IMG/VR virus record: IMGVR_UViG_2547132280_000007
Length of the DNA stretch: 31,479 nucleotides
Direction: 5' to 3' (one strand)
From: a virus
Lineage: Duplodnaviria > Heunggongvirae > Uroviricota > Caudoviricetes
Positions 1 to 28,246 of the stretch are shown here, in pieces; position 1 is the first letter of the stretch; every line of letters starts with the position of its first letter. The position numbers and the translations under genes are program-made. Under the pieces are notes generated by a model that had not been told where the DNA came from, did not search any database, and worked only from the letters and a program-made list of their open reading frames with translations.

Positions 1-642
1 TTAATCGGACGCTTTTAAATTTTTATTTTTCCCTGCAGAAAAATTAGCTTTCCCGCTGTTTTGCAACTCAACAAGAGGAGATAACCGTCGGTAAACAGCC
101 AAAAGTATCTTTAACTGAACCAGTTCATCTGCCCCCGATAGTTGAACCAAGTTTTTACGTTGTTCTTCACTAAGTGCCATCACAGATTCAAGTGATTTAA
201 CTGCGTCAGAAACAAGTTCAATCTCTTTAATTTGATTCTGTATACGCAGCTTCTCTGATTTCAACTTTGCCCATTCTCTTTGTCGATATGTACGCATCAC
301 CTGATCGTAAACTTTGTTGGCAGCCAGAATACTTCCACCAACAGCAGTAACTAACTCAGCAATCTGCCAAGAGATATCAATAAGAGCAGACAATTCAATA
401 AAGCCAGGAGAGGCATACTGAATTTTTTTCACTACAGGACGTAAATCTGGTGGAGTCGCACTGTAAGCCCCTCTAAAAAAGTTCACTACACTGTGCCCAC
501 CCTCCCAAGGCATTGTTGAATATCCTCTTGATCCTCCTTTTAGGCCATAAAAAAAACCATATAGCTGCAAATACTCTTTCGTTAAGACCGCGAAATCAGC
601 TAACTCCCAACGATTATCAAGCTCAATTATAACTTTTTCCAT
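1..642 (-). CDS. hypothetical protein, 213 aa, AT-rich; moron or flanking gene of unknown function
   Basis: Complete ORF (ATG at 642, stop at 1-3) with GGTGG about 6 nt upstream of the ATG. Roughly 38% GC against about 52% for the phage backbone. No motif recognised; C-terminal half looks coiled-coil-like (heptad-rich, K/E/Q/L). Confidence 0.5.
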   Translation of the reverse strand: MEKVIIELDNRWELADFAVLTKEYLQLYGFFYGLKGGSRGYSTMPWEGGHSVVNFFRGAYSATPPDLRPVVKKIQYASPGFIELSALIDISWQIAELVTAVGGSILAANKVYDQVMRTYRQREWAKLKSEKLRIQNQIKEIELVSDAVKSLESVMALSEEQRKNLVQLSGADELVQLKILLAVYRRLSPLVELQNSGKANFSAGKNKNLKASD

Positions 643-6193: not shown

Positions 6194-7384
6194 TTAATTG
6201 CTGTTAACCGAGGTGACCAGATTTGCCAGGTATTTATCGGTAATACGCTGGCGCAGGGTCAGGTTTTCAAGAGGAGGCACCGGGGTATAGTCGTAGTCGA
6301 TATACAGTTTTCCGGCCTTGAGGGTTTCCGCATCGTTGGATTCTTCGCTGAACCAGCAGGTCGCATCCACGATATAGCCGTTTGTTTTCAGCTCACGGAA
6401 TTTGGCATTGATGCCGTCAACGATGTCGCGAATCAGCGTTGCGGTGATGGGCTTATCCACAGCCCACATGTGCGCCTCAGCCATCGTGTCGGCCAGCACC
6501 TGCGCAGTGCGGGTGTAGTTTTCAAAGAGGAACAGCGGGTCATCAGAGCAGGTACGGTTACCCCAGAAGCGGAAACCGTCGCGGCGAATCAGCGTAGTGA
6601 CACCTGACTCGTTAAGAAGGTCAGCATCGGTGCCGGACTCCTGCAAATCCCAGAATACAGATGCGCTGATGCCGGTAACACCGTTTACCCCGACGTTGGA
6701 CAGCGTTTTATGCCAGCCCTGCTCCTGGTCGATTTTAGCGCGCAGCCCCAGTGCACGGGCGGTGGCATACGCGGTGGCGGTGGTACTGGTGACCGTATCC
6801 CATGCGAGGAAATCCGGCCAGATGACCATCAGCTCACGCTGGCTGAAATTCTGACGGTAGGCTTTCACCTCGGAAATGGTTTTACAGCCCCATGCGCTGA
6901 TATACCCGAAAGCGCGCAGCTTCTGACAGACTGATGCCAGTGCAACAGCCACCTCTTTGGTATCCAGTCCCGGCACGCCGAGAATACGCGGTTTTACACC
7001 GGTTACCGACTCCGCCGCCAGCAGGGCTTTCAGTCCGGTGTACTGACCGTTTTCGTCGGTGGTGCCGATGATATTGGAAACGGTCTGCGCGAGTTTCGTT
7101 TCTTCGTCTTCGCCGGTGCCGTCTTCCACACGCACGACAACGGTGACCGGTTTTGACTGGTCGGCGATGGCCTGTAACGATGCCGCCAGCGTGCCTTTTT
7201 TACCGGCCTTCGCAATTGCGCTCTGCACATTGGTAATCAGCACCGGTTTATTGAGGGGGAAGGTTTCCGCATCTGCATCGCTGGCCGTGCAGACCATGCC
7301 GACAATGGCCGTGGATACGGTGGAAATGACGCGGGTGCCGTCGTTAATCTCCAGCACCTGCACGCCGTGATGATAGTCACTCAT
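6194..7384 (-). CDS. FI: contractile tail sheath protein gpFI, 396 aa
   Basis: 396 aa, first gene of the FI-FII-E-T-U-D operon. Confidence 0.9.
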   Translation of the reverse strand: MSDYHHGVQVLEINDGTRVISTVSTAIVGMVCTASDADAETFPLNKPVLITNVQSAIAKAGKKGTLAASLQAIADQSKPVTVVVRVEDGTGEDEETKLAQTVSNIIGTTDENGQYTGLKALLAAESVTGVKPRILGVPGLDTKEVAVALASVCQKLRAFGYISAWGCKTISEVKAYRQNFSQRELMVIWPDFLAWDTVTSTTATAYATARALGLRAKIDQEQGWHKTLSNVGVNGVTGISASVFWDLQESGTDADLLNESGVTTLIRRDGFRFWGNRTCSDDPLFLFENYTRTAQVLADTMAEAHMWAVDKPITATLIRDIVDGINAKFRELKTNGYIVDATCWFSEESNDAETLKAGKLYIDYDYTPVPPLENLTLRQRITDKYLANLVTSVNSN

Positions 7385-7480
7385 CCGTTTAACTCCGTGG
7401 TTAATGGGTGAGTGGTATTTTCAGTTGTGCAGGGCATGAGATGCTATTTGACCTGGCTGGTCAGGGGATGAAACAACAGA
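7385..7480 (-). promoter_or_regulatory. candidate Ogr-dependent late promoter region upstream of FI
   Basis: Non-coding spacer between the terminator at 7481-7506 and the FI start. No consensus element was identified with confidence. Confidence 0.3.
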
Positions 7481-7506
7481 TAAAAAAGGCGGGCAATCAG
7501 CCCGCC
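7481..7506 (-). terminator. intrinsic terminator ending the V-W-J-I-H-G operon
   Basis: Stem ggcgggc (7488-7494) / gcccgcc (7500-7506) with loop aatca; on the minus strand followed by TTTTTT (7482-7487). Confidence 0.65.
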
Positions 7507-7714
7507 TGTATTTATTGCGGTATTTCCGACCATTCAGGATTTGCAGGATCCACACGACCAGAAAGACAGCTACTGATTAATCAGGCCAATAAATACATGA
7601 ACAGTAAGCAATAGCCCGGCAGGTCTGAGGTACTGGCGCAATATAATTTGTGGCTGGATTACCTGTACGCACCGGAGCGGTCCGATACTTCCGGTACGTC
7701 AGATATTGAATGGC

Positions 7715-8125
7715 CTACGCCTCCTGCAGTTCAGGCCAGATGACATCCGGTGCGGTGCTGGTATCTGTTGCCGTCACAGCGTCGATATAATCCAGCACAA
7801 CGTTAAGTCGGGTAGTTTCTTCTTGCGTCAGTTTGCGCCCGGCCTGCAGCTTTAACTGAATCACGCTGATATTGGCCATTGCTGCGTCTATCAGCGACTG
7901 TTTTTTCTGTTCAGCGTCAGCTACCAGTTCATCATGAGAACGTTCCGGAGGGAGCGGCGCAGTAAATACCCCGTCTGAATACCCCCAGCCGATTCCGGGA
8001 TGCTCACTGATATCAGAAATATCAATGAGCTGCTGATTATCCGGCACTGTGAATTCAGCCTCGCCATCCCAGACAATGACATTCACAACCATCCCATTTT
8101 CAATAACTGCATATGACGCATTCAT
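7715..8125 (-). CDS. G: tail fibre assembly chaperone (gpG-position), 136 aa
   Basis: Start ATG overlaps the H stop (TAATG) with GAGGAG 9 nt upstream. Shorter than P2 gpG (about 175 aa), consistent with an exchanged host-range cassette. Confidence 0.75.
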   Translation of the reverse strand: MNASYAVIENGMVVNVIVWDGEAEFTVPDNQQLIDISDISEHPGIGWGYSDGVFTAPLPPERSHDELVADAEQKKQSLIDAAMANISVIQLKLQAGRKLTQEETTRLNVVLDYIDAVTATDTSTAPDVIWPELQEA

Positions 8126-10290
8126 TATGCAAACTCCTCGATAATACAAATCCCAGCGGCACCTTTCCCGCCTGTCATACTGGTTCCGCTATAACCGGCA
8201 TCGTATGCACCACCTCCGCCTGAACCATATGCCTTACCGCTAACGCCACCGCCAGCGCCTGCGCGTCCACCGCCACCCCAGTACGATGTTCCGCCTTCAC
8301 CACTGACGCTGATATTTCCGGACTGACCGTCGCCTCCATTTCCACCAGTGATGCGGATATCGCCAGTACTCGGCACACCTCCGTTACCGCCGTTTGTGTT
8401 TGTAATTCCCACTTTCCCGCCACCTGCGCCACCAGGAGCAATTAACGATGCGAATACGCTATTCCCGCCACTGGTGCCGTTCGTCGCACTAACACCACCG
8501 GCCCCACCTGCGCCGATAGTGACTGGATAACTATTCTGTATCGGGGTCATTATTGAAATTATTGTTCCACCGGCCCCACCGCCAGCACCGAAAAACGTTT
8601 CATTATTGGATATAGCCTTGCAGCCGCCCCCTCCGCCACCGCCGCCCGTTATTGTGACCCTAATCCGTTTTGTTCCTGGCGTCGGGGTGTACGTACCTGA
8701 TGACGTGAAAACCCGGGTATTCACCAAGCGTCCCACGTATCCACTTGCATCGCTCAAGCCAAGGTCAGCAGCAGTAGGTTTAATATGTGAACTGTAAATT
8801 ACATATACAGTTCCATCTGTCAGGCCTGTTGGTTTATTCGCTGTATAAGATGGTGATGTATGAATCGTTACGCTGGCGTTACTGGTATAATCCCACTGAA
8901 TATTAACACGTGTGGTGTAATTACCTATTTCAACATAAACATCATAGGTATCACCGGATGTATTCACCCATGCAAAATTAGTAAATCCAACCGATGTCCG
9001 TCGCCATAACGCACCAGTAAGACCTTTTGGATTCCCATTTCCCGCACGAAGAACAAGTTCAGATATACCAGCCTGCATAGGGGAGTTAACATTATATCCA
9101 GAACCACCAATCAGACTTATGTAAACCACGGAACTGGCCTGTGGCATGGTTACAGTTGCCAGCCTGAACCATCCTGTACCACCACTAAAAGACATGGTTG
9201 TTGAATTTGTTGCTCCAATATTGCGCAGGAATAATCTTTTATCAGGAATATCCGCGCCGTTCTGATCTTTCTGAAGACGTTTTTCAGCATTGTCATAGGC
9301 AGACTTCACCGCTTTCGGTGTTGCGGCCAGCGTTTCAGAAGTGCTATTGGTGGCGCTGCTGAGCTGGACAAGGCCTTTTCGCGCTGTGGTCGCGTCCTGT
9401 GCGGTATATTTCCCGTTAGCAAGGTCATATGCTGTCTTAACCGCCTTTGGCGTTGCCGCAAGCGTTTCAGAATCGCTGTTGGTGGCGCTACTGAGCTGGA
9501 CAAGACCTTTTCGCGCTGTGGTCGCGTCCTGTGCGGTATATTTCCCGTTAGCAAGGTCATATGCTGTCTTTACCGCCTTTGGCGTTGCCGCAAGCGTTTC
9601 AGAATCGCTGTTGGTGGCGCTACTGAGCTGGACAAGACCTTTTCGCGCTGTGGTCGCGTCCTGTGCAGTATATTTCCCGTTAGCAAGATCATACGCGACC
9701 TTTACCGCTCTCGGCGTTGCGGCCAGTGTTTCAGACGTGCTGTTGGTTGCGCTGCTTAACTGAGTAAAACCTTTTGCGGTCAGCGATGCATCCGGGTGTC
9801 GTCGTGAATGTTCGTGTTCTGAGATTTTGTCATCCACATATTTACGGGTCGCCAGTACTACCGACGGGTCGATTTTCAGCGTGATGGCTTCGGTATTCGA
9901 GACAACCAGAATCATGCGGATAGTCTGGGTACGACCACTGCCTTCCTGCAACTGCGGTTTGTACGTTTCCGGGCAGTTCGCCACCGCAATGAGTACGCCT
10001 TCATCATCATAAAGCCCAATCTCACGGATCCAGAATCCTCCCTCGTTTTCAGGGATAATTTGCTCCGCAATAATCTGGCTCTGATTGTTAGGGTCAACAC
10101 TCAGAAGATTCAGCGGTGCAATGCGTTTCTGGTTAATCAGTTTTGTCTGTGCCGGGTCTGGTGTCGGTAATACACCATTCGCATCACCAACGGCCATTTG
10201 CGTCAGATTCAGCTTACTGCCGAGCATCGTCGCGTTAGCCAGTCGTGCTGCGCCCTGATTAGTCAGAATGGCGTAGTATTTCACTGTCAT
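8125..10290 (-). CDS. H: tail fibre protein gpH, 721 aa, mosaic: P2-like N-terminus, four ~40-aa repeats, glycine-rich C-terminal domain
   Basis: The N-terminus MTVKYYAILTNQGAARLANATMLG... is the conserved P2 H baseplate-attachment region. The middle has four copies of GLVQLSSATNSxSETLAATPKAVKxAYDLANGKYTAQDATTARK. The C-terminus is Gly-rich (GGGGGGGCK..., GAGGGAGG, GGNGGDGQSG). Confidence 0.85.
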   Translation of the reverse strand: MTVKYYAILTNQGAARLANATMLGSKLNLTQMAVGDANGVLPTPDPAQTKLINQKRIAPLNLLSVDPNNQSQIIAEQIIPENEGGFWIREIGLYDDEGVLIAVANCPETYKPQLQEGSGRTQTIRMILVVSNTEAITLKIDPSVVLATRKYVDDKISEHEHSRRHPDASLTAKGFTQLSSATNSTSETLAATPRAVKVAYDLANGKYTAQDATTARKGLVQLSSATNSDSETLAATPKAVKTAYDLANGKYTAQDATTARKGLVQLSSATNSDSETLAATPKAVKTAYDLANGKYTAQDATTARKGLVQLSSATNSTSETLAATPKAVKSAYDNAEKRLQKDQNGADIPDKRLFLRNIGATNSTTMSFSGGTGWFRLATVTMPQASSVVYISLIGGSGYNVNSPMQAGISELVLRAGNGNPKGLTGALWRRTSVGFTNFAWVNTSGDTYDVYVEIGNYTTRVNIQWDYTSNASVTIHTSPSYTANKPTGLTDGTVYVIYSSHIKPTAADLGLSDASGYVGRLVNTRVFTSSGTYTPTPGTKRIRVTITGGGGGGGGCKAISNNETFFGAGGGAGGTIISIMTPIQNSYPVTIGAGGAGGVSATNGTSGGNSVFASLIAPGGAGGGKVGITNTNGGNGGVPSTGDIRITGGNGGDGQSGNISVSGEGGTSYWGGGGRAGAGGGVSGKAYGSGGGGAYDAGYSGTSMTGGKGAAGICIIEEFA
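9300..9790 (-). repeat. four tandem direct repeats, 120-bp period, inside H
   Basis: Units starting near 9311, 9441, 9561 and 9681 are near-identical; copies 2 and 3 differ by only a few bases. They encode the 40-aa tail-fibre repeat. Confidence 0.85.
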
Positions 10291-19229: not shown

Positions 19230-21002
19230 ATGACCATCACCACAGACACCACTCTTTTACACGACCCGCGTCGTCAGGCGGCGCTGCTGTACTGGCAGGG
19301 ATTTTCCGTGCCGCAGATTGCCGCCATGTTGCAGATGAAACGCCCGACGGTGCAGAGCTGGAAACAGCGCGACGGCTGGGACAGCGTTGCCCCCATCAGC
19401 CGTGTCGAAATGAGTCTGGAAGCGCGGCTGACCCAGCTCATCATCAAACCGCAGAAAACCGGCGGTGACTTCAAGGAAATTGACCTGCTCGGACGCCAGA
19501 TTGAACGACTGGCACGGATAAACCGCTACAGTCAGACCGGCAACGAGGCAGACCTTAATCCGAACGTCGCTAACCGCAACAAAGGCGGGCGTCGCAAACC
19601 GAAAAAGAATTTTTTCAGTGACGAGGCCATCGAAAAGCTGGAGCAGATTTTCTTTGAGCAGTCTTTCGACTATCAGTTGCACTGGTATCGCGCCGGGCTT
19701 GAGCACCGCATCCGCGATATCCTGAAATCCCGCCAGATTGGCGCAACGTTTTATTTTTCCCGCGAGGCGCTGCTGCGTGCCCTGAAAACCGGTCATAACC
19801 AGATTTTTCTGTCGGCCAGTAAAACGCAGGCGTATGTGTTCCGCGAATACATCATCGCCTTTGCCCGTCTGGTTGACGTTGACCTGACCGGTGACCCGAT
19901 TGTCCTGGGCAATAACGGCGCAAAACTGATTTTTCTCGGCACCAACTCCAACACCGCACAGAGCCATAACGGTGACCTGTACGTCGACGAGATTTTCTGG
20001 ATCCCGAATTTTCAGGTACTGCGTAAGGTGGCATCAGGTATGGCCTCACAGAGTCACCTGCGCTCGACCTATTTCTCCACCCCGTCCACGCTGGCGCACG
20101 ACGCCTACCCGTTCTGGTCGGGTGAACTGTTTAACCGGGGACGCGCCAGCGCCGCTGAACGCGTGGAAATCGACGTCAGTCATAACGCCCTTGCCGGTGG
20201 GCTTCTCTGTGCGGACGGCCAGTGGCGGCAGATTGTCACCATTGAGGACGCCCTGAAAGGCGGCTGCACATTGTTCGACATTGAGCAGCTTAAACGCGAA
20301 AACAGCGCCGACGATTTTAAAAACCTGTTCATGTGTGAATTTGTTGACGACAAGGCATCGGTGTTCCCGTTCGAGGAGCTGCAACGCTGCATGGTCGACA
20401 CGCTGGAAGAATGGGAAGACTATGCGCCGTTTGCCGCAAATCCGTTCGGCTCACGTCCGGTATGGATTGGTTACGACCCGTCACACCGTGGCGACAGCGC
20501 CGGATGCGTGGTACTGGCACCGCCGGTGGTGGCCGGTGGCAAATTCAGAATACTTGAGCGTCACCAGTGGAAAGGCATGGACTTTGCCACCCAGGCGGAA
20601 TCCATCCGCAAACTCACCGAAAAATACAACGTCGAATACATCGGAATTGATGCCACCGGCCTCGGTGTCGGCGTGTTCCAGCTCGTGCGCTCGTTCTATC
20701 CCGCCGCGCGCGATATCCGCTACACGCCGGAAATGAAAACCGCAATGGTGCTCAAGGCAAAAGACGTTATCCGCCGTGGCTGTCTGGAATATGACGTCAG
20801 CGCCACCGACATCACCAGCTCGTTTATGGCTATCCGCAAGACCATGACCAGCAGCGGACGCAGTGCCACCTATGAGGCCAGCCGCAGCGAGGAAGCCAGC
20901 CACGCCGACCTCGCCTGGGCGACCATGCACGCCCTGTTAAATGAGCCACTCACCGCCGGTATCAGCACCCCGCTGACATCCACCATTCTGGAGTTTTACT
21001 GA
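19230..21002 (+). CDS. P: terminase large (ATPase) subunit gpP, 590 aa
   Basis: Start at MTITTDTTLL... (ATG 19230, GAGGT 4 nt upstream) gives 590 aa, the P2 gpP length. Confidence 0.9.
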   Translation: MTITTDTTLLHDPRRQAALLYWQGFSVPQIAAMLQMKRPTVQSWKQRDGWDSVAPISRVEMSLEARLTQLIIKPQKTGGDFKEIDLLGRQIERLARINRYSQTGNEADLNPNVANRNKGGRRKPKKNFFSDEAIEKLEQIFFEQSFDYQLHWYRAGLEHRIRDILKSRQIGATFYFSREALLRALKTGHNQIFLSASKTQAYVFREYIIAFARLVDVDLTGDPIVLGNNGAKLIFLGTNSNTAQSHNGDLYVDEIFWIPNFQVLRKVASGMASQSHLRSTYFSTPSTLAHDAYPFWSGELFNRGRASAAERVEIDVSHNALAGGLLCADGQWRQIVTIEDALKGGCTLFDIEQLKRENSADDFKNLFMCEFVDDKASVFPFEELQRCMVDTLEEWEDYAPFAANPFGSRPVWIGYDPSHRGDSAGCVVLAPPVVAGGKFRILERHQWKGMDFATQAESIRKLTEKYNVEYIGIDATGLGVGVFQLVRSFYPAARDIRYTPEMKTAMVLKAKDVIRRGCLEYDVSATDITSSFMAIRKTMTSSGRSATYEASRSEEASHADLAWATMHALLNEPLTAGISTPLTSTILEFY

Positions 21003-22036
21003 TGAGCAAGAAAAAAGGGAAAACACCGCAACCTGCGGCAAAAAAAATGACCGCCAGCGCCCCGAAAATGGAGGCATTCACCTTTGGTGAGCCGGTGCCG
21101 GTACTCGACCGGCGTGACATTCTGGATTACGTCGAGTGCATCAGTAACGGCAGATGGTATGAGCCACCGGTCAGCTTTACCGGTCTGGCGAAAAGCCTGC
21201 GTGCTGCCGTGCATCACAGCTCACCGATTTACGTCAAACGTAATATTCTGGCCTCGACATTTATCCCGCATCCATGGCTTTCCCAGCAGGATTTCAGCCG
21301 CTTTGTGCTGGATTTTCTGGTATTTGGTAATGCATTTCTGGAAAAGCGTTACAGCACCACCGGTAAAGTTATCAGGCTGGAAACCTCACCGGCAAAATAT
21401 ACCCGCCGTGGTGTGGAAGAGGATGTTTACTGGTGGGTGCCGTCCTTCAACGAGCCGACAGCCTTCGCGCCCGGCTCCGTGTTTCACCTGCTGGAGCCGG
21501 ATATTAATCAGGAGCTGTACGGCCTGCCGGAATATCTCAGCGCCCTTAACTCTGCCTGGCTGAATGAGTCGGCCACGCTGTTCCGCCGCAAGTATTACGA
21601 AAATGGCGCACATGCCGGATACATCATGTACGTCACTGATGCCGTGCAGGATCGCAACGATATCGAAATGCTTCGCGAAAACATGGTCAAGTCGAAAGGC
21701 CGCAACAACTTTAAAAATCTGTTTCTCTATGCCCCGCAGGGGAAAGCCGACGGCATTAAAATTATCCCGCTCAGTGAAGTGGCAACGAAGGACGATTTTT
21801 TTAATATCAAAAAAGCCAGCGCCGCTGACCTGCTGGACGCGCACCGCATCCCCTTTCAGTTGATGGGCGGCAAGCCGGAGAACGTCGGGTCGCTGGGTGA
21901 TATTGAGAAAGTGGCAAAGGTCTTTGTCCGCAATGAACTTATCCCGTTACAGGACAGGATTCGGGAAATAAACGGCTGGCTCGGCCAGGAGGTCATCCGC
22001 TTTAAAAACTACTCACTGGACACTGACAACGGCTGA
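21002..22036 (+). CDS. Q: portal protein gpQ, 344 aa
   Basis: 344 aa; start overlaps the P stop (TGATG). Confidence 0.9.
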   Translation: MSKKKGKTPQPAAKKMTASAPKMEAFTFGEPVPVLDRRDILDYVECISNGRWYEPPVSFTGLAKSLRAAVHHSSPIYVKRNILASTFIPHPWLSQQDFSRFVLDFLVFGNAFLEKRYSTTGKVIRLETSPAKYTRRGVEEDVYWWVPSFNEPTAFAPGSVFHLLEPDINQELYGLPEYLSALNSAWLNESATLFRRKYYENGAHAGYIMYVTDAVQDRNDIEMLRENMVKSKGRNNFKNLFLYAPQGKADGIKIIPLSEVATKDDFFNIKKASAADLLDAHRIPFQLMGGKPENVGSLGDIEKVAKVFVRNELIPLQDRIREINGWLGQEVIRFKNYSLDTDNG

Positions 22037-22320: not shown

Positions 22321-22450
22321 TTGCGAATTCACGCACATCAACGCGAATCTTACATCATGAATAATTCATTTATGGCTACAGAATGAGTATATTGCATGTT
22401 ATGAAATAACTTTGTGCTCCTTCTCGTGGACATGTTCAACGGAGATCCAG

Positions 22451-23572
22451 ATGATTGCTGATTCAGAAATACTTTATGTTCCGCTAGATGATTTGGAACT
22501 TGACACAGAAAACCCAAGACTTCCTGAAGGCGTGTCTCGTGACCAATTGGGAATGATTAACTACATAGCAACCTCAACATCTATCGAAGACTTAATGAGT
22601 GCTATTGCGGAAAATGGTTTTTTCCCTGGAGAACCATTGATTGTCATTCCTGATAGTGGAGCGCCGGGGAAGTACATTGTAGTTGAAGGAAACCGTCGCC
22701 TATCCGCGGTCAAATTATTACGCGATCCGACACTATGTGAAAATCCAAGTGCTCGACTACGAGAAATTGCATCAAATGCAAAACATACGGTCGATCGTGT
22801 TCCTGTCATTGAGCGCCAAACAAGAGAAGAGATTCTTCCGTACCTTGGTTTCAGACATATTACTGGTGTCAAACAATGGGAACCCTTATCAAAAGCTCGA
22901 TATATTAAACAGCTTTTTGATTATACCAATGCAAATCTGGATCCAATGCTACGCTACTATGAGGTTGCCAGAGCTATTGGCAGTCGTAGGGATCATATCA
23001 AGCGTAACCTAGACGCTTTAGCGGTGTATGAAATCATTAAAAAAAATGATTTTTATGGTATTGAAAAGCTAGATGAAGAAACGATTAAATTTTCAGTATT
23101 ATCAACAGCACTTGCTGATGAGCGGTTAGGCCAGTTTGTCGGAGTTTCAATCGAAGACGATGGAGACACAATACCAAGTCATCCTATCATCAATTCTAAG
23201 AGTTTAAAGAACAAAGAAATAAAAGAACTAACTGAATGGTTATATAAAAAAGGCGAGGATAAAAAAACTCGTGTAGGAGAATCACGTAATTTAAGAGAAC
23301 TAGCTGCTGTTGTAAGTAGCCCTAAGGCATTGGAGCAATTCCGAATGGGGGCTCCACTCGCAGTTGCCTATCAATTGACATCTGATATTACTAAGGACTT
23401 TCTCCAGTTACTTTATCAAGTTGAAGCAGCTTTGATAGATGCAGCAGGCATGGTTGCCACGGTAGAGTATGATAGACAGGCCCATGAAGTAGCACGAAGA
23501 ATCAATAAACATATTAAGCTTATAGGTTCTGAAATAGCAGAGAAAAATAGCAGAGGTGATGATGACTTTTGA
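22451..23572 (+). CDS. ParB/Srx-like N-terminal domain protein, 373 aa (cargo gene 1)
   Basis: Start at ATG 22451 with GGAG 6-7 nt upstream. The N-terminal 150 aa follow the ParB N-domain pattern: LDDLELDTENPR, IVVEGNRRLSAVKLL (GxRR box), VPVIER. AT-rich. Confidence 0.7.
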   Translation: MIADSEILYVPLDDLELDTENPRLPEGVSRDQLGMINYIATSTSIEDLMSAIAENGFFPGEPLIVIPDSGAPGKYIVVEGNRRLSAVKLLRDPTLCENPSARLREIASNAKHTVDRVPVIERQTREEILPYLGFRHITGVKQWEPLSKARYIKQLFDYTNANLDPMLRYYEVARAIGSRRDHIKRNLDALAVYEIIKKNDFYGIEKLDEETIKFSVLSTALADERLGQFVGVSIEDDGDTIPSHPIINSKSLKNKEIKELTEWLYKKGEDKKTRVGESRNLRELAAVVSSPKALEQFRMGAPLAVAYQLTSDITKDFLQLLYQVEAALIDAAGMVATVEYDRQAHEVARRINKHIKLIGSEIAEKNSRGDDDF

Positions 23573-24551
23573 AGTAGGAGTTATGCATCCCAACTCTCCT
23601 CATTTGTTTGCAGATTTAGCCGAGTTACTCACGGTAATTAATTATACCGGACGTAACTCACTACATAAAAATGATTTAGATTCAGTAAGAAAATTCGGCA
23701 TAACAAGCGTTGAAGAAATTGATGAAGAATGTAATTCTGAAGAAGAAATTAATGGAGACGCTGAGAGAAATGATCGTTTTGAAGAGCAACTCGAAGATGT
23801 TTGGACACAACTCGAATATAGAGAAAGTGCTCTTGGAAAAATATATCCATTTATAATTTCAGGTGATGAGATAATTATTAAAGAAAATCTAAACCAACAA
23901 CAACGAATATATGTTTTTCTTCTTTGCTGCTCTAGACTTAGATCCTTTAAGTCGATTAAAGGAGCAGCACAACGTTGGGCAAAGAGCTTTGCCAGAGTAT
24001 GTAAAGTAGCAATGATTTCTCTCTTACCTGCACATGGCACCGTAAGAATTTTTGATGCTAACTCCGATGATAGGCAAAATTATTATGGAACAAATCTTCG
24101 GACAGCTCTACAAACTTTAGGAAAAGATCTTGGAGTTTGTAGTTTAAACACAAGGGAAATAAATAGAGCTCCCACATCTGGTGATGCCGGGTTTGACCTA
24201 ATTGCTACAGTGGAATTTCCTGATGGTCAAACTAGCAACTATGGAATTCTTGGTCAATGTGGTGCACAAGAAACAGGGTGGCCAAGCAAAACATTAGAGG
24301 CTAACGTGTTAAAACTGACCACCTATTTCCAAATTGCGTTCCAGCATCCATCAACAATGTTCACGCCTGTTTTCTATCGGGAAGCAAATGGCGAATGGGT
24401 AAGCACACACGCAACCGCTGGGGTATTATTATTAGATAGGTTGAGAATCATATATCTACTTGATAAGGCAAACCAATGGGAAGCGATAACTACCTCTGAT
24501 TGGTTTCGCGAATTTGAGGAAGAGCTTTATACATTAAATCCAGAGCCTTAA
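23562..24551 (+). CDS. hypothetical protein, about 329 aa, translationally coupled to gene 1 (cargo gene 2); possible nuclease or effector
   Basis: Overlaps the gene 1 stop by 11 nt. Start is uncertain (GTG 23556, ATG 23559/23562 or ATG 23583); AGAGG lies 5 nt before ATG 23562. No confident motif seen. Confidence 0.6.
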   Translation: MTFEVGVMHPNSPHLFADLAELLTVINYTGRNSLHKNDLDSVRKFGITSVEEIDEECNSEEEINGDAERNDRFEEQLEDVWTQLEYRESALGKIYPFIISGDEIIIKENLNQQQRIYVFLLCCSRLRSFKSIKGAAQRWAKSFARVCKVAMISLLPAHGTVRIFDANSDDRQNYYGTNLRTALQTLGKDLGVCSLNTREINRAPTSGDAGFDLIATVEFPDGQTSNYGILGQCGAQETGWPSKTLEANVLKLTTYFQIAFQHPSTMFTPVFYREANGEWVSTHATAGVLLLDRLRIIYLLDKANQWEAITTSDWFREFEEELYTLNPEP

Positions 24552-24558
24552 TAGCTTA

Positions 24559-25503
24559 TCAATCCCATAATTCTATTGGCAATGCCTTCGTTACAGCTTC
24601 AAAAAGCGGCGGAGGCACTGCATTACCAACCACCGTGTATTTCATGCCAAGACTTGCAGCATTTGTTTCTGGAAACACTAGATCCTCAAACCCTTGTAAT
24701 AGTGCTGCCTCTCGAAAACTGAATCTGCGAGCTCTCCGATCCTCAACAAATCTCCATTCATCAGTTCTTACTTTCTCCATCGGAGGACTGACAGGATGCA
24801 ACGGCATATGCCTTGCATTAGCAACTATTGTCTTTGAAATTTGATCCCAATCCTGGCGACGATTGCGAGACATATAATACCAATGGAATCCCATATCATA
24901 AAATTCACCTTCTGGCCATTCAGGTAAATGCCCTATAGCATCTTTAATAGTAACATAGTTGACGCCAGTTGCTGGCCCATGAGTTGGCTGAGGGAACTCG
25001 TACTTAACTTTGAAATCATTACGGATTCCTACGATAAATATTCTTTTTCTTTCCTGCGCTACTCCATATTCAGCCGCATTTAAAACTTTTGCGGAAACAG
25101 TATAACCTGCTTCAGTAAAAACCCTGATCTGGTCAGATAACAAATGCTCAAAATTTTTTCTAACCATACCAGACACGTTTTCTACTATAAAAGCTTTAGG
25201 CTTTATATTGTTTAAAGCTCTAGCAAACTCTAAATAAAGAGTATTAATTTTTCGATCGGCTTTACGCGCACCACCCTGGCTGAATCCCTGACATGGATAA
25301 CAACCTACCAGCAAATCAGATTTAGGAAAAGTAGTTACATCAGCAATATTGCCTAATATGTAATCAGTTTCTGGATGATTGGCAATATAAACATCGCGCG
25401 CATACGGCAAGATATCGTTGGCCATAAGCACATCAAAGCCGGCTCTCAAAACCCCCGCATCGGAACCACCGCATCCAGAAAAAAGTGAAACTACTGTTGG
25501 CAT
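24559..25503 (-). CDS. DNA (cytosine-5)-methyltransferase, 314 aa
   Basis: C5-MTase motifs in canonical order: I SLFSGCGG, IV GCYPCQGFS (catalytic Pro-Cys), VI FIVENV, VIII QERKRIFIVG, X VVGNAVPP. Strong SD (GGAGGGGATA) before the ATG. Confidence 0.85.
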   Translation of the reverse strand: MPTVVSLFSGCGGSDAGVLRAGFDVLMANDILPYARDVYIANHPETDYILGNIADVTTFPKSDLLVGCYPCQGFSQGGARKADRKINTLYLEFARALNNIKPKAFIVENVSGMVRKNFEHLLSDQIRVFTEAGYTVSAKVLNAAEYGVAQERKRIFIVGIRNDFKVKYEFPQPTHGPATGVNYVTIKDAIGHLPEWPEGEFYDMGFHWYYMSRNRRQDWDQISKTIVANARHMPLHPVSPPMEKVRTDEWRFVEDRRARRFSFREAALLQGFEDLVFPETNAASLGMKYTVVGNAVPPPLFEAVTKALPIELWD

Positions 25504-25704: not shown

Positions 25705-27981
25705 TTATTGTTTAATTGAAAAAACCGACCACTCATTAGCGACCGGATACGTGAATTTTTTCCCGTCATAATTTACGGTTGCCCCACGCGCCAGCGCCTC
25801 AAGCTCCCATCGCTGCGGCCTGATACCGTTCTGAGCAAGGTCAACGCGGATACGGGTAATTTGCATTCGTTCCGACCGGGTCAGTCTGGCCGATGGTGCC
25901 ATTTCATGCGGTTTTAACGGGCTTCCGTTTCTTTGCTGGCGATTTGGTGTTCTCAGGCCATGTTTTAATGCACCTCTGAGCGCCCTCACGACCTCCGGGT
26001 CATTCCATTCGATGACACCGTCATCAACCAGATTAAGCACTGCTGCGGCGTGCTCAGAAGGTGTGGGGGCTGGTAACGAAGTATCACCACCGGTGAGCTT
26101 TCCACAGTTATTGACAGGACTCCGAGGCGCGGCGATGCCGCTTTTTAAAGTCAAAGGCTCAACGACCGGAACTTTCGGCACAATGCGCCAGTCCGTCGTT
26201 CTGGTGATATGAATATGACGCGCGCCGAGATGCGGCGCGTAAATGCCGACCACTCTCTCGACTTCTTCCTCGTACTCGTTAACGTCATCCGACGGGCTAC
26301 GGGCAACCCTGACAGTCTGACAATCGCGCGGGACATTTGCCCCACCCTGCGCGCTGATATACAACGCAAAATCACCACTGTCTGCGGCAGCGCGAGCAGC
26401 CTCGACGCGTTCGTCAAACTCATCAGCAATACTGACGCCGCGAGGCAATTTGCGTAGTTCACGGTAAGCCCCCATTGTCGGCAGTCCAACCGTTTTAAAT
26501 TGCGGGATGCGCCACGTTGACGCCCATGCGGTAACAGCCGCGGCAGTATCTTTAAGCGGCTTACCGGTATCGTTATCGAGCTGACCATCCAGTGCATAGC
26601 CGTCGATATTTTTTGAAATGTATTTCGCGATATATCCCGCAGCACCGCCCCGGTTAAGGTGCTTTGCCTGAAAACGGTTTCGCGCGGCTCCTCTTTCGTC
26701 ACCATCCTCTTTGAGCGCATAGCGACGCATGATTTCGATAATCTGGTTACGCTGGCGTGGATTACAAAAAAGCATCATATGCCAGTGCGGCGTTCCGTCG
26801 TGGTGTGGCTCGACGACACGCAAACCGTAGACCTGTAAATCATTATCCTTAAATGCCGTGCGCATCAGGCTCCAGATGCGGCAGAGATAACGCTGCGCAT
26901 CCTTTGGATTAAATGCCTCATCGTTCCAGCCGTGATTAAGCTGAACGGTTTTACTTTCGCCTTTTCTGACCTGACGAGTCGGGTGATACTTTGACGGCGC
27001 GGTCAGCGTGATAAACATCCCCACATCACCCTCTGCGGCGGCGTAACGCTCAATACCGGCAATGGTGTTCATCAGCTCCATCCGGCGAATTTCAGGATTA
27101 GAAATACTGCCCATCACCTTACTGATAAGGTCGATGCGCTCGCCGGTTTCCCTGTTTTCAAGGTCACACGATTTAAGAAATTCCAGATTTGCCTGGCGGC
27201 GCGCACGCACATCACGAATGGCGTGTTTACTGGCATAAGGAGAACGGTCTTTATTGACCTCCCCGACAGCTATCAGTAACGCTTCATGCCAGCGCATACG
27301 CTGGCCTTTAAGCTGATGAGTCCACCACTCATCGTTAAACAGACGGGCAATGGCAGAATATGCCTGCCTCGTGGTCATCTGCCCTTTACGGTATTTTTTC
27401 CAGTAGAGCGGGGATATATTGAAAGCACGTGCAGCGCCAGCAACATGACCATAGAGGTGAGCCTGCGCCTCATCCGTAAACAGCGATTCTTTTTCGCCAT
27501 GCGCATCCACCCAGGCATCGCTGAGTTCCTCATACATCATGAAAAGCTGCGATGAGATACGGGCAACAAACTTTTTCAGCTCCTTGTCATTCATTCCCGG
27601 CAGGCGCGCATAGTGGTCACGCTCTGCCAGAAACAGTAACGACGCGTCGGTGTTCATTTCATGGCGCTGATTCACACGCTCAATGCGCGGCCATAAACGA
27701 CGCTGAAAAGTGGATGTGAGGAAATAAAACCCGTGCACCGGGCTTTTATTGCGCCGGATGTAGTCATAGCGTGAAGTAAACAGCGAGCGCAAAAAGTAAG
27801 GCAGGCGGTTAATCGTGGATAAAACACCCTGCACCTGACGCATCTCGTCACGTGTAAGGGGTCTTTCGCGCCCGACAGCCTCGCGTGGCGCGTTCCATGC
27901 ATAAGCACCGGTAAACGCCTTACCGGTGCCTGCGGCAAATACTGACGGAGGGACAAAACGCCCGGAGGCTTTAACGGCCAT
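25705..27981 (-). CDS. A: replication initiation protein gpA (rolling-circle nickase)
   Basis: Large protein directly after B and the small ORFs. Start chosen at MAVKASGRFVPP... (ATG 27981, coupled to the upstream ORF stop); the track ORF extends to 28023. Confidence 0.85.
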   Translation of the reverse strand: MAVKASGRFVPPSVFAAGTGKAFTGAYAWNAPREAVGRERPLTRDEMRQVQGVLSTINRLPYFLRSLFTSRYDYIRRNKSPVHGFYFLTSTFQRRLWPRIERVNQRHEMNTDASLLFLAERDHYARLPGMNDKELKKFVARISSQLFMMYEELSDAWVDAHGEKESLFTDEAQAHLYGHVAGAARAFNISPLYWKKYRKGQMTTRQAYSAIARLFNDEWWTHQLKGQRMRWHEALLIAVGEVNKDRSPYASKHAIRDVRARRQANLEFLKSCDLENRETGERIDLISKVMGSISNPEIRRMELMNTIAGIERYAAAEGDVGMFITLTAPSKYHPTRQVRKGESKTVQLNHGWNDEAFNPKDAQRYLCRIWSLMRTAFKDNDLQVYGLRVVEPHHDGTPHWHMMLFCNPRQRNQIIEIMRRYALKEDGDERGAARNRFQAKHLNRGGAAGYIAKYISKNIDGYALDGQLDNDTGKPLKDTAAAVTAWASTWRIPQFKTVGLPTMGAYRELRKLPRGVSIADEFDERVEAARAAADSGDFALYISAQGGANVPRDCQTVRVARSPSDDVNEYEEEVERVVGIYAPHLGARHIHITRTTDWRIVPKVPVVEPLTLKSGIAAPRSPVNNCGKLTGGDTSLPAPTPSEHAAAVLNLVDDGVIEWNDPEVVRALRGALKHGLRTPNRQQRNGSPLKPHEMAPSARLTRSERMQITRIRVDLAQNGIRPQRWELEALARGATVNYDGKKFTYPVANEWSVFSIKQ

Positions 27982-28246
27982 ATGAGCCAAAAGCCTCTGA
28001 ACAACGCTTGCTGAGTTGCTCAACCTGCGCGTTTAAATCAGCAAAAGATTTTGCGCTTCCGGTCAGAATATCGTGATGCATCAGGCCGGAAACGAGCTGG
28101 CTTAATTTCGGGTAATAACCAACCACTGCCAGCCATTCCTGACCGGCGTTTTTACCGCTTTCCGCTCTCTTTCTCTCGTGGAGAATAAACTGAAAGCTGT
28201 CACTGGTAACGACATAACGTTCGCCAATTTCAATACGAATACTCAT
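27971..28246 (-). CDS. small early protein, 91 aa (P2 orf83-position)
   Basis: Synteny between B and A; overlapping stop/start with neighbours. Confidence 0.6.
   Translation of the reverse strand: MSIRIEIGERYVVTSDSFQFILHERKRAESGKNAGQEWLAVVGYYPKLSQLVSGLMHHDILTGSAKSFADLNAQVEQLSKRCSEAFGSYGR

Follow-up and report, generated by a model that had tools for sequence, protein, structure and literature searches.

A tandem array of PF03406 units with one recent in-frame duplication in the tail-fibre gene of a P2-like Escherichia coli prophage

Introduction

The gpH protein of phage P2 is the textbook example of a tail fibre bearing the PF03406 repeat. Phage fibre genes were reportedly described as mosaic products of motif shuffling by Haggard-Ljungquist, Halling and Calendar in 1992 (J Bacteriol 174:1462) and as rearranged sequence motifs by Sandmeier in 1994 (Mol Microbiol 12:343), and duplications of small domains in the T4 tail-fibre adhesin are said, after work by Tetart et al. 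in 1996 (J Mol Biol), to expand host range. Here, we have analysed a tandem repeat array within the tail-fibre gene of the IMG/VR record IMGVR_UViG_2547132280_000007, a stretch of 31,479 nucleotides (nt) that is a P2-like prophage of Escherichia coli and is referred to below, at its full length, as the window. The account that we favour, with a probability of roughly 80%, is that the array consists of four tandem PF03406 modules, three of them old and one a recent in-frame copy that arose from a three-unit ancestor by unequal exchange or slippage and presumably lengthens the fibre shaft.

Variation by whole repeat periods has been reported in another fibre type. In the collagen-like prophage fibres of enterohaemorrhagic E. 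coli (EHEC), rod segments differ between alleles in this manner, and the EPclB architecture of these fibres includes one PF03406 unit (PMC3368898). No publication was found that explicitly reports or tabulates unit-number polymorphism in P2-like fibres, and the repeats are not discussed in papers on P2 fibre engineering and P2-like diversity.

Structure of the repeat array

Tandem Repeats Finder located the main array at positions 9292-9753, with a period of 132 base pairs (bp), 3.5 copies, 90% matches and a score of 707, the sole other array in the window being a trivial one (score 50). It lies wholly inside a minus-strand open reading frame (ORF) of 721 amino acids (aa), in which four units of 132 bp or 44 aa, spaced at 44 aa, stand between an N-terminal collar and a glycine-rich distal domain. 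The gene and its units are as follows.

8125..10290, minus strand: tail-fibre gene of the P2 gpH type, 721 aa (ORF, translation and Pfam)
9655..9786, minus strand: repeat unit 1, aa 169-212, old and diverged, inside a PF03406 match
9523..9654, minus strand: repeat unit 2, aa 213-256, one member of the young pair, sharing 131/132 nt with unit 3
9391..9522, minus strand: repeat unit 3, aa 257-300, its partner in the young pair, sharing 131/132 nt with unit 2
9259..9390, minus strand: repeat unit 4, aa 301-344, terminal, 71% nt identical to units 2 and 3

The tandem array that an earlier reading of the letters alone (the original prediction) had placed at 9300-9790 in the tail-fibre gene is therefore real, but its period is 132 bp and not 120 bp, and the 40-aa unit proposed there is in fact one of 44 aa, the array amounting to four units at the protein level. 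All four units fit the Pfam description 'phage tail fibre repeat' (family Phage_fiber_2), being tandem copies in a tail-fibre protein, and PF03406 matches the fibre in four separate stretches with a total score of 258.8 bits (cut-off 22); the best stretch, aa 169-209, covers positions 1-41 of the 42 in the profile. The core of the unit is strongly conserved among phages, with 16 invariant columns in 10 units, and in unit 4 this core is followed by a different tail, AYDNAEKRLQKDQN, which leads into the distal fibre. Two further ORFs within the array, at 9341-9763 on the plus strand and 9306-9560 on the minus strand, are antisense or alternative-frame by-products of the repeat.

The two middle units carry the evidence for a recent event. 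Units 2 and 3 share 131 of 132 nt (99.2%) and all 44 aa, and the lone difference is synonymous, unit 2 having A on the coding strand at window position 9571 (codon GTA) and unit 3 having T at position 9439 (codon GTT), a T that is also present in three-unit complete genomes. Such identity between neighbouring segments is far beyond chance. By comparison, nucleotide identity to the middle pair is 75-76% for unit 1 and 71% for unit 4, and units 1 and 4 are 61% identical to each other; each of the older unit pairs has 10-11 codons with purely synonymous differences, and units 1 and 4 differ from the middle units by 9-12 amino-acid changes per comparison. As modules of a conserved domain family, units 1 and 4 are old and have diverged, and only the middle pair is young. 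When nine arrays were compared, units 2 and 3 of the window had the highest identity of any adjacent pair, all other pairs falling between 59 and 95.5% at the nucleotide level, and in alleles with five units the adjacent identities were graded (82-95.5%). The original prediction of four near-identical copies born of recent duplication thus applies to a single in-frame unit, seen in the 131/132 pair and in a complete-genome relative with one unit fewer (L001, see below), whereas the outer copies, at only 71-76% nucleotide identity to the middle pair, are old.

The fibre gene and its setting

The domains on either side of the array, and the gene that follows the fibre gene, are listed here.

9841..10290, minus strand: N-terminal collar (baseplate-attachment) domain, aa 1-150 (PF12571)
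8134..8703, minus strand: glycine-rich distal domain, aa 530-718, presumed receptor-binding end (PF21722)
7715..8125, minus strand: tail-fibre assembly (chaperone) gene, 136 aa (PF02413, E = 2.2e-20)

Pfam detected the collar domain with E = 1.3e-62 and the glycine-rich domain with E = 1.7e-12. The fibre gene is placed between a homologue of P2 gpI and the tail-fibre assembly gene, whose start codon overlaps the fibre stop codon and which is likewise called in related contigs. Flanking Pfam matches comprise gpJ, gpI, the fibre-assembly protein and the tail sheath, and near-identical contigs show the full P2-like gene order. Assignment to the P2 gpH type (Peduoviridae) agrees with the V-W-J-I-H-G order conserved in the P2-like structural operon, with the PF12571 collar, and with the collinearity between the window protein and P2 gpH over residues ~150-170 of the latter and the units. 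From this membership, the fibre is predicted to be a trimer that sits on the baseplate and binds a receptor on the host surface. A 100% identical fibre gene, labelled 'tail fiber protein', is present in six complete E. coli genomes.

Unit number among relatives

Because draft assemblies treat such arrays poorly (see below), the copy-number argument is based solely on complete genomes and isolated phages. In four complete E. coli genomes (H87-H90), the whole gene is matched over a span exactly 132 nt shorter, and the two that were inspected (L001 and L002) have three units, namely 1, 2 and 4 only. After removal of one unit from the window gene, L001 differs from it by 15 substitutions in 2034 nt (99.3% identity); L001 is the closest complete-genome relative and has exactly one unit fewer. 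In both L001 and L002, the stretch at gene positions 598-653 recurs, with a single mismatch, at positions 730-785, so that the three-unit allele contains a direct repeat of 56 nt, at a spacing of 132 nt, which straddles the unit boundaries and would be a plausible substrate for the unequal exchange or slippage that gave the duplication in the window.

The two forms also differ in diversity. Among the best 120 database proteins, the three-unit form (677 aa) falls into 34 clusters with up to 42 aa differences, while the four-unit form (721 aa) is a tight group with at most 4 aa differences; its protein is recorded on 116 contigs. Since the three-unit form is diverse and the four-unit form tight, and given the 131/132 pair, the four-unit allele appears to be young and derived.

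The wider family shows a broad range of unit numbers. Proteins that have both flanks come in lengths of 589, 633, 677 and 721 aa, corresponding to one, two, three and four units, of which the 589- and 633-aa members come only from contigs of at most 173 kb. Further alleles carry five 44-aa units, and in others, 44-aa units occur alongside units of 56 aa with an HTHPW segment. This His-containing 56-aa variant, which ends '...AAGKAPVSHTHPWSQITDVPA' (loci L003 and L004; proteins P0040, P0057 and P0059), has tandem duplications of its own, each adding 56 aa (689 to 745 aa and 701 to 757 aa), and neighbouring 56-aa units in L003 are 89% identical at the nucleotide level. In the IMG/VR set of 80 contigs, the 63 fibre genes that are complete encode collars with 92% or more identity to that of the window, and they carry zero (17 genes), one (7), two (26), three (10), four (1), five (1) or seven (1) units. 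Isolated phages vary as well, with two units in P2 gpH, three in fiAA91-ss, four in vB_YpM_115 and P2_2H4, and none in 500465-2, whose collar domain is related.

Ungapped collinearity between these proteins and the window protein stops at aa 148-149 or at ~170, and elsewhere just past the conserved core of a unit, at ~236-246 or ~282-290. Such a pattern would be expected of a modular protein in which the units act as joints. The original prediction had proposed to compare repeat number across related prophages and had named an identical number in all of them as the contrary outcome; the range of zero to seven units speaks for its claim that copy number changes. The heterogeneity that it had expected within a lineage was not seen, the same four-unit gene recurring in the six complete genomes.

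Origin of the array and alternative explanations

According to the account favoured above, the array would lie in the proximal shaft of a trimeric fibre of the P2 gpH type, between the collar that binds the baseplate and the receptor-binding, glycine-rich part at the distal end. In a three-unit ancestor, the middle unit, of the T type at the distinguishing base, would have been duplicated in frame (132 bp) to give the fourth unit, after which one of the copies acquired a single mutation. Every unit is flanked by short direct repeats, and the copy probably arose when these underwent unequal homologous exchange or caused slippage during replication; from the sequence of the three-unit alleles, we infer that the 56-nt repeat on the unit boundaries would have been the site of the event. 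Events of this kind, combined with crossing-over of distinct fibre genes at the conserved unit core, could have produced the range of zero to seven units on one collar domain, and every extra unit would presumably lengthen the shaft by one module and leave receptor specificity unchanged.

Several points weigh against this account. The direction of change, gain rather than loss, is argued from parsimony only, and the link from unit number to shaft length or host range is a putative one. An AlphaFold2 monomer model of aa 151-367 was unusable, with a predicted local distance difference test score (pLDDT) of 42.6 and a predicted template modelling score (pTM) of 0.24, and when the PDB was searched with the complete protein and with a 10-unit profile, the only relative returned was protein S of phage Mu, which has one unit, and no structure of a unit array was obtained. 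The array is stable on the timescale sampled: six complete genomes share an identical four-unit gene, and therefore no instability is visible over that span. Fibre genes are also frequently cut in the IMG/VR set, 17 of the 80 contigs terminating inside the fibre gene, and the apparent three-unit siblings of the window, L008-L014, which are all draft or metagenome assemblies, probably represent collapsed four-unit arrays.

The case of these siblings deserves some detail. Apart from lacking one unit, the 677-aa protein P0005 is the same as the window protein, and the prophage on its contigs is that of the window, at 99.7-99.9% identity and in the same chromosomal site. At the distinguishing base, the lone middle unit has A in five contigs, T in one and N in L009 (BDOW01000001.1, N at locus position ~10720). 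Because this N falls exactly on the sole base that separates units 2 and 3, as the collapse of two copies would produce, and because only draft or metagenome contigs with this A/T/N signature are involved, P0005 was dropped as proof of a sibling allele. The draft locus L014 (P0001) is of another kind, its last unit being a mosaic that is of the unit-2/3 type at unit positions 18, 33, 45, 49, 50 and 75 and of the unit-4 type at positions 63, 66, 72 and 78 onward. The mosaic excludes a simple k-mer collapse of the window array as its source and suggests a real exchange between units. Several IMG/VR contigs stop in the repeats or soon after them (loci L029, L035, L050 and L065). Short-read assemblies collapse or break at this array, and unit counts from draft genomes are unreliable, which is a warning for comparative genomics.

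Four other explanations were weighed. The differences in unit number, or the fourth copy itself, might be products of repeat misassembly, for which the N in L009, the A or T in the other draft three-unit versions and the many IMG/VR contigs that end within the fibre gene could be cited; yet six genomes deposited as complete share one and the same four-unit gene, its protein recurs on over a hundred contigs, the three-unit alleles of H87-H90 come from complete genomes with real substitutions elsewhere in the gene, and isolated phages vary in both the number and the sequence of their units, all of which makes an assembly artefact very improbable. We consider it equally improbable that the array is a static, ancient domain repeat held by constraint on the protein only, with no copy-number dynamics. 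The divergence of the outer units from the middle ones (~25-29% of nt, including the 10-11 codons with synonymous changes only), the invariant core columns and the identical arrays in the complete genomes would all agree with such stasis, but constraint on a protein cannot give 131/132 identical nt with all synonymous sites included, nor does it explain how a complete genome 99.3% identical elsewhere in the gene has one unit fewer or how the same collar domain bears zero to seven units, so that this explanation is already largely refuted. A somewhat less remote variant, though still an improbable one, holds that the four-unit array is old, that units 2 and 3 were homogenised lately by gene conversion, and that the three-unit relatives arose by deletion. 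The mosaic last unit of L014 does resemble conversion or recombination between units, and the graded adjacent identities in five-unit alleles point the same way; against it, the conversion tract would need to span exactly one whole unit, three-unit alleles greatly exceed the tight four-unit cluster in both number and diversity, and the T found in three-unit complete genomes, as in unit 3, agrees with duplication of a T-type ancestor followed by a single mutation.

The least credible of the four is a programmed hypervariable locus, in which fibre length would be switched at high frequency by a contingency (phase-variation-like) mechanism or by dedicated diversification. Two near-identical tandem units do provide a substrate for deletion or further expansion, and an inverted relic of an alternative fibre-assembly gene lies beside the chaperone gene; on the other side, a 132-bp unit is in frame, so that changes in copy number make no on/off switch, and the array is the same in all six complete genomes. 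For these two reasons, the locus was not classed as a contingency or phase-variable one. Switching by an invertible segment, of the Mu G or P1 C type, was rejected likewise, because there is a reverse-oriented fragment only and no invertase or recombinase ORF between the chaperone gene of the fibre operon and the sheath gene. Retroelement-driven variation was rejected too, as no reverse transcriptase is found among the three cargo genes of the hotspot described below and the arrays in the six genomes are identical.

Beyond the gain of one module in frame, a more far-reaching reading can be offered, although we regard it as doubtful: unit number might be a selectable setting of the 'reach' of the fibre, matched to the depth of O-antigen or capsule, with the unit core serving as the preferred crossover site at which distal receptor-binding modules are swapped and with the recent gain being adaptive. 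If so, the array would serve host-range evolution in this family of fibres as a mechanical hinge, and the crossover partners would be P2-like prophages and other phages, including plasmid-borne ones. The lineage with the recent unit gain includes strain TW11681, which we take to be an enterotoxigenic E. coli (ETEC) strain.

Distal module and other loci of the window

The part of the gene beyond the array has relatives on plasmids. Gene positions 1084-2166 (window 8125-9207) are ~96% identical to parts of much longer fibre genes on E. coli plasmids of ~90-124 kb, and this homology, which includes the glycine-rich domain, begins just past the array with its linker. In the one plasmid that was inspected (L105), phage holin and lysis genes lie near, and the 1566-codon fibre reading frame is annotated as an incomplete pseudogene. 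These observations indicate a recent exchange of the presumed receptor-binding module between a P2-like prophage and plasmids of this kind.

Downstream of the 136-aa chaperone gene, at window 7384-7743, there is a reverse-oriented fragment of a fibre-assembly gene (~7648-7743, plus strand), the equivalent of which is labelled an incomplete pseudogene by RefSeq in relatives. The fragment at ~7648-7743 resembles the remnant of a fibre cassette of the invertible or alternative kind.

Two further loci of the window carry genes with matches to defence models or to a DNA methylase. The P2 cargo hotspot (22412-25503) is bounded by the portal gene (21002-22036, plus strand) on one side and by replication gene A (25705-28023, minus strand) on the other, and it contains three genes: one for a 386-aa protein that matches PADLOC PD-Lambda-5_A (E = 6.6e-29) and has no Pfam hit, one for an overlapping 331-aa protein with neither a Pfam nor a PADLOC hit, and, on the opposite strand, one for a 314-aa C-5 cytosine DNA methylase (PF00145, E = 5.5e-65). 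At the other end, a minus-strand ORF of 213 aa (window 1-642), which touches the window start and adjoins an ogr-like gene (783-1082), matches PADLOC PD-T4-10_B (E = 1.3e-34) and has no Pfam hit; in related contigs, it is situated between ogr and the chromosomal cation-efflux and phosphofructokinase genes.

Comparison with known fibre systems

The array belongs to an already known kind of feature, being a real but ordinary case of the modular evolution of phage fibres, and it reveals no new mechanism or system. Its value is that of a clean, small example of the gain and loss of fibre modules, in which a 132-bp in-frame duplication has been caught one substitution later, with a near-identical relative that does not have it. 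It also suggests a practical use, since chimeric P2-type fibres could probably be joined or lengthened at unit boundaries, just past the conserved SETLAATPKAVK core.

With respect to Pfam family PF03406, the window protein is one more instance, notable just for one very young copy, and with respect to the view of PF03406 as a shuffled motif, the window family conforms in that unit number varies and homology junctions fall at unit edges. The P2 gpH fibre (AF063097) resembles that of the window in having its gene between gpI and a fibre-assembly gene, the same collar, and 44-aa PF03406 units from about residue 169; it differs in having two units, 59% identical at the nucleotide level, as against four with one pair at 99.2%. 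The distal parts are also distinct, P2 having a domain of its own and a 175-aa gpG and the window having the PF21722 glycine-rich domain and the 136-aa chaperone.

Protein S (gp49) of phage Mu (PDB 5YVQ, 8JU3 and 9KI1) contains one PF03406 unit at residues 112-154, followed by the linker 'DNAxxRLxKDxNGADIPxK', the same as after the last unit of the window, and this last unit with its linker aligns with residues 99-176 of protein S (PDB 5YVQ and 8JU3); the fold of the PF03406 segment is not described in the Mu cryo-electron microscopy paper. Protein S differs from the window fibre in its single unit, in its other N-terminal attachment domain and in a distal part that is switched by the invertible G segment, whereas the window has no functional invertible segment but only a relic. 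The EHEC fibres differ in that their variable segments consist of collagen triplets and of heptad coiled coils, borne by side fibres of the lambdoid type, and are not arrays of 44-aa PF03406 units on a fibre of the P2 type. The T4 adhesin duplications are reportedly likewise in-frame tandem copies of a short fibre-gene module that arise by recombination between repeated motifs, but they are said to affect the receptor-binding tip and to change host range directly, whereas the duplication in the window is located in the proximal shaft, far from the distal domain.

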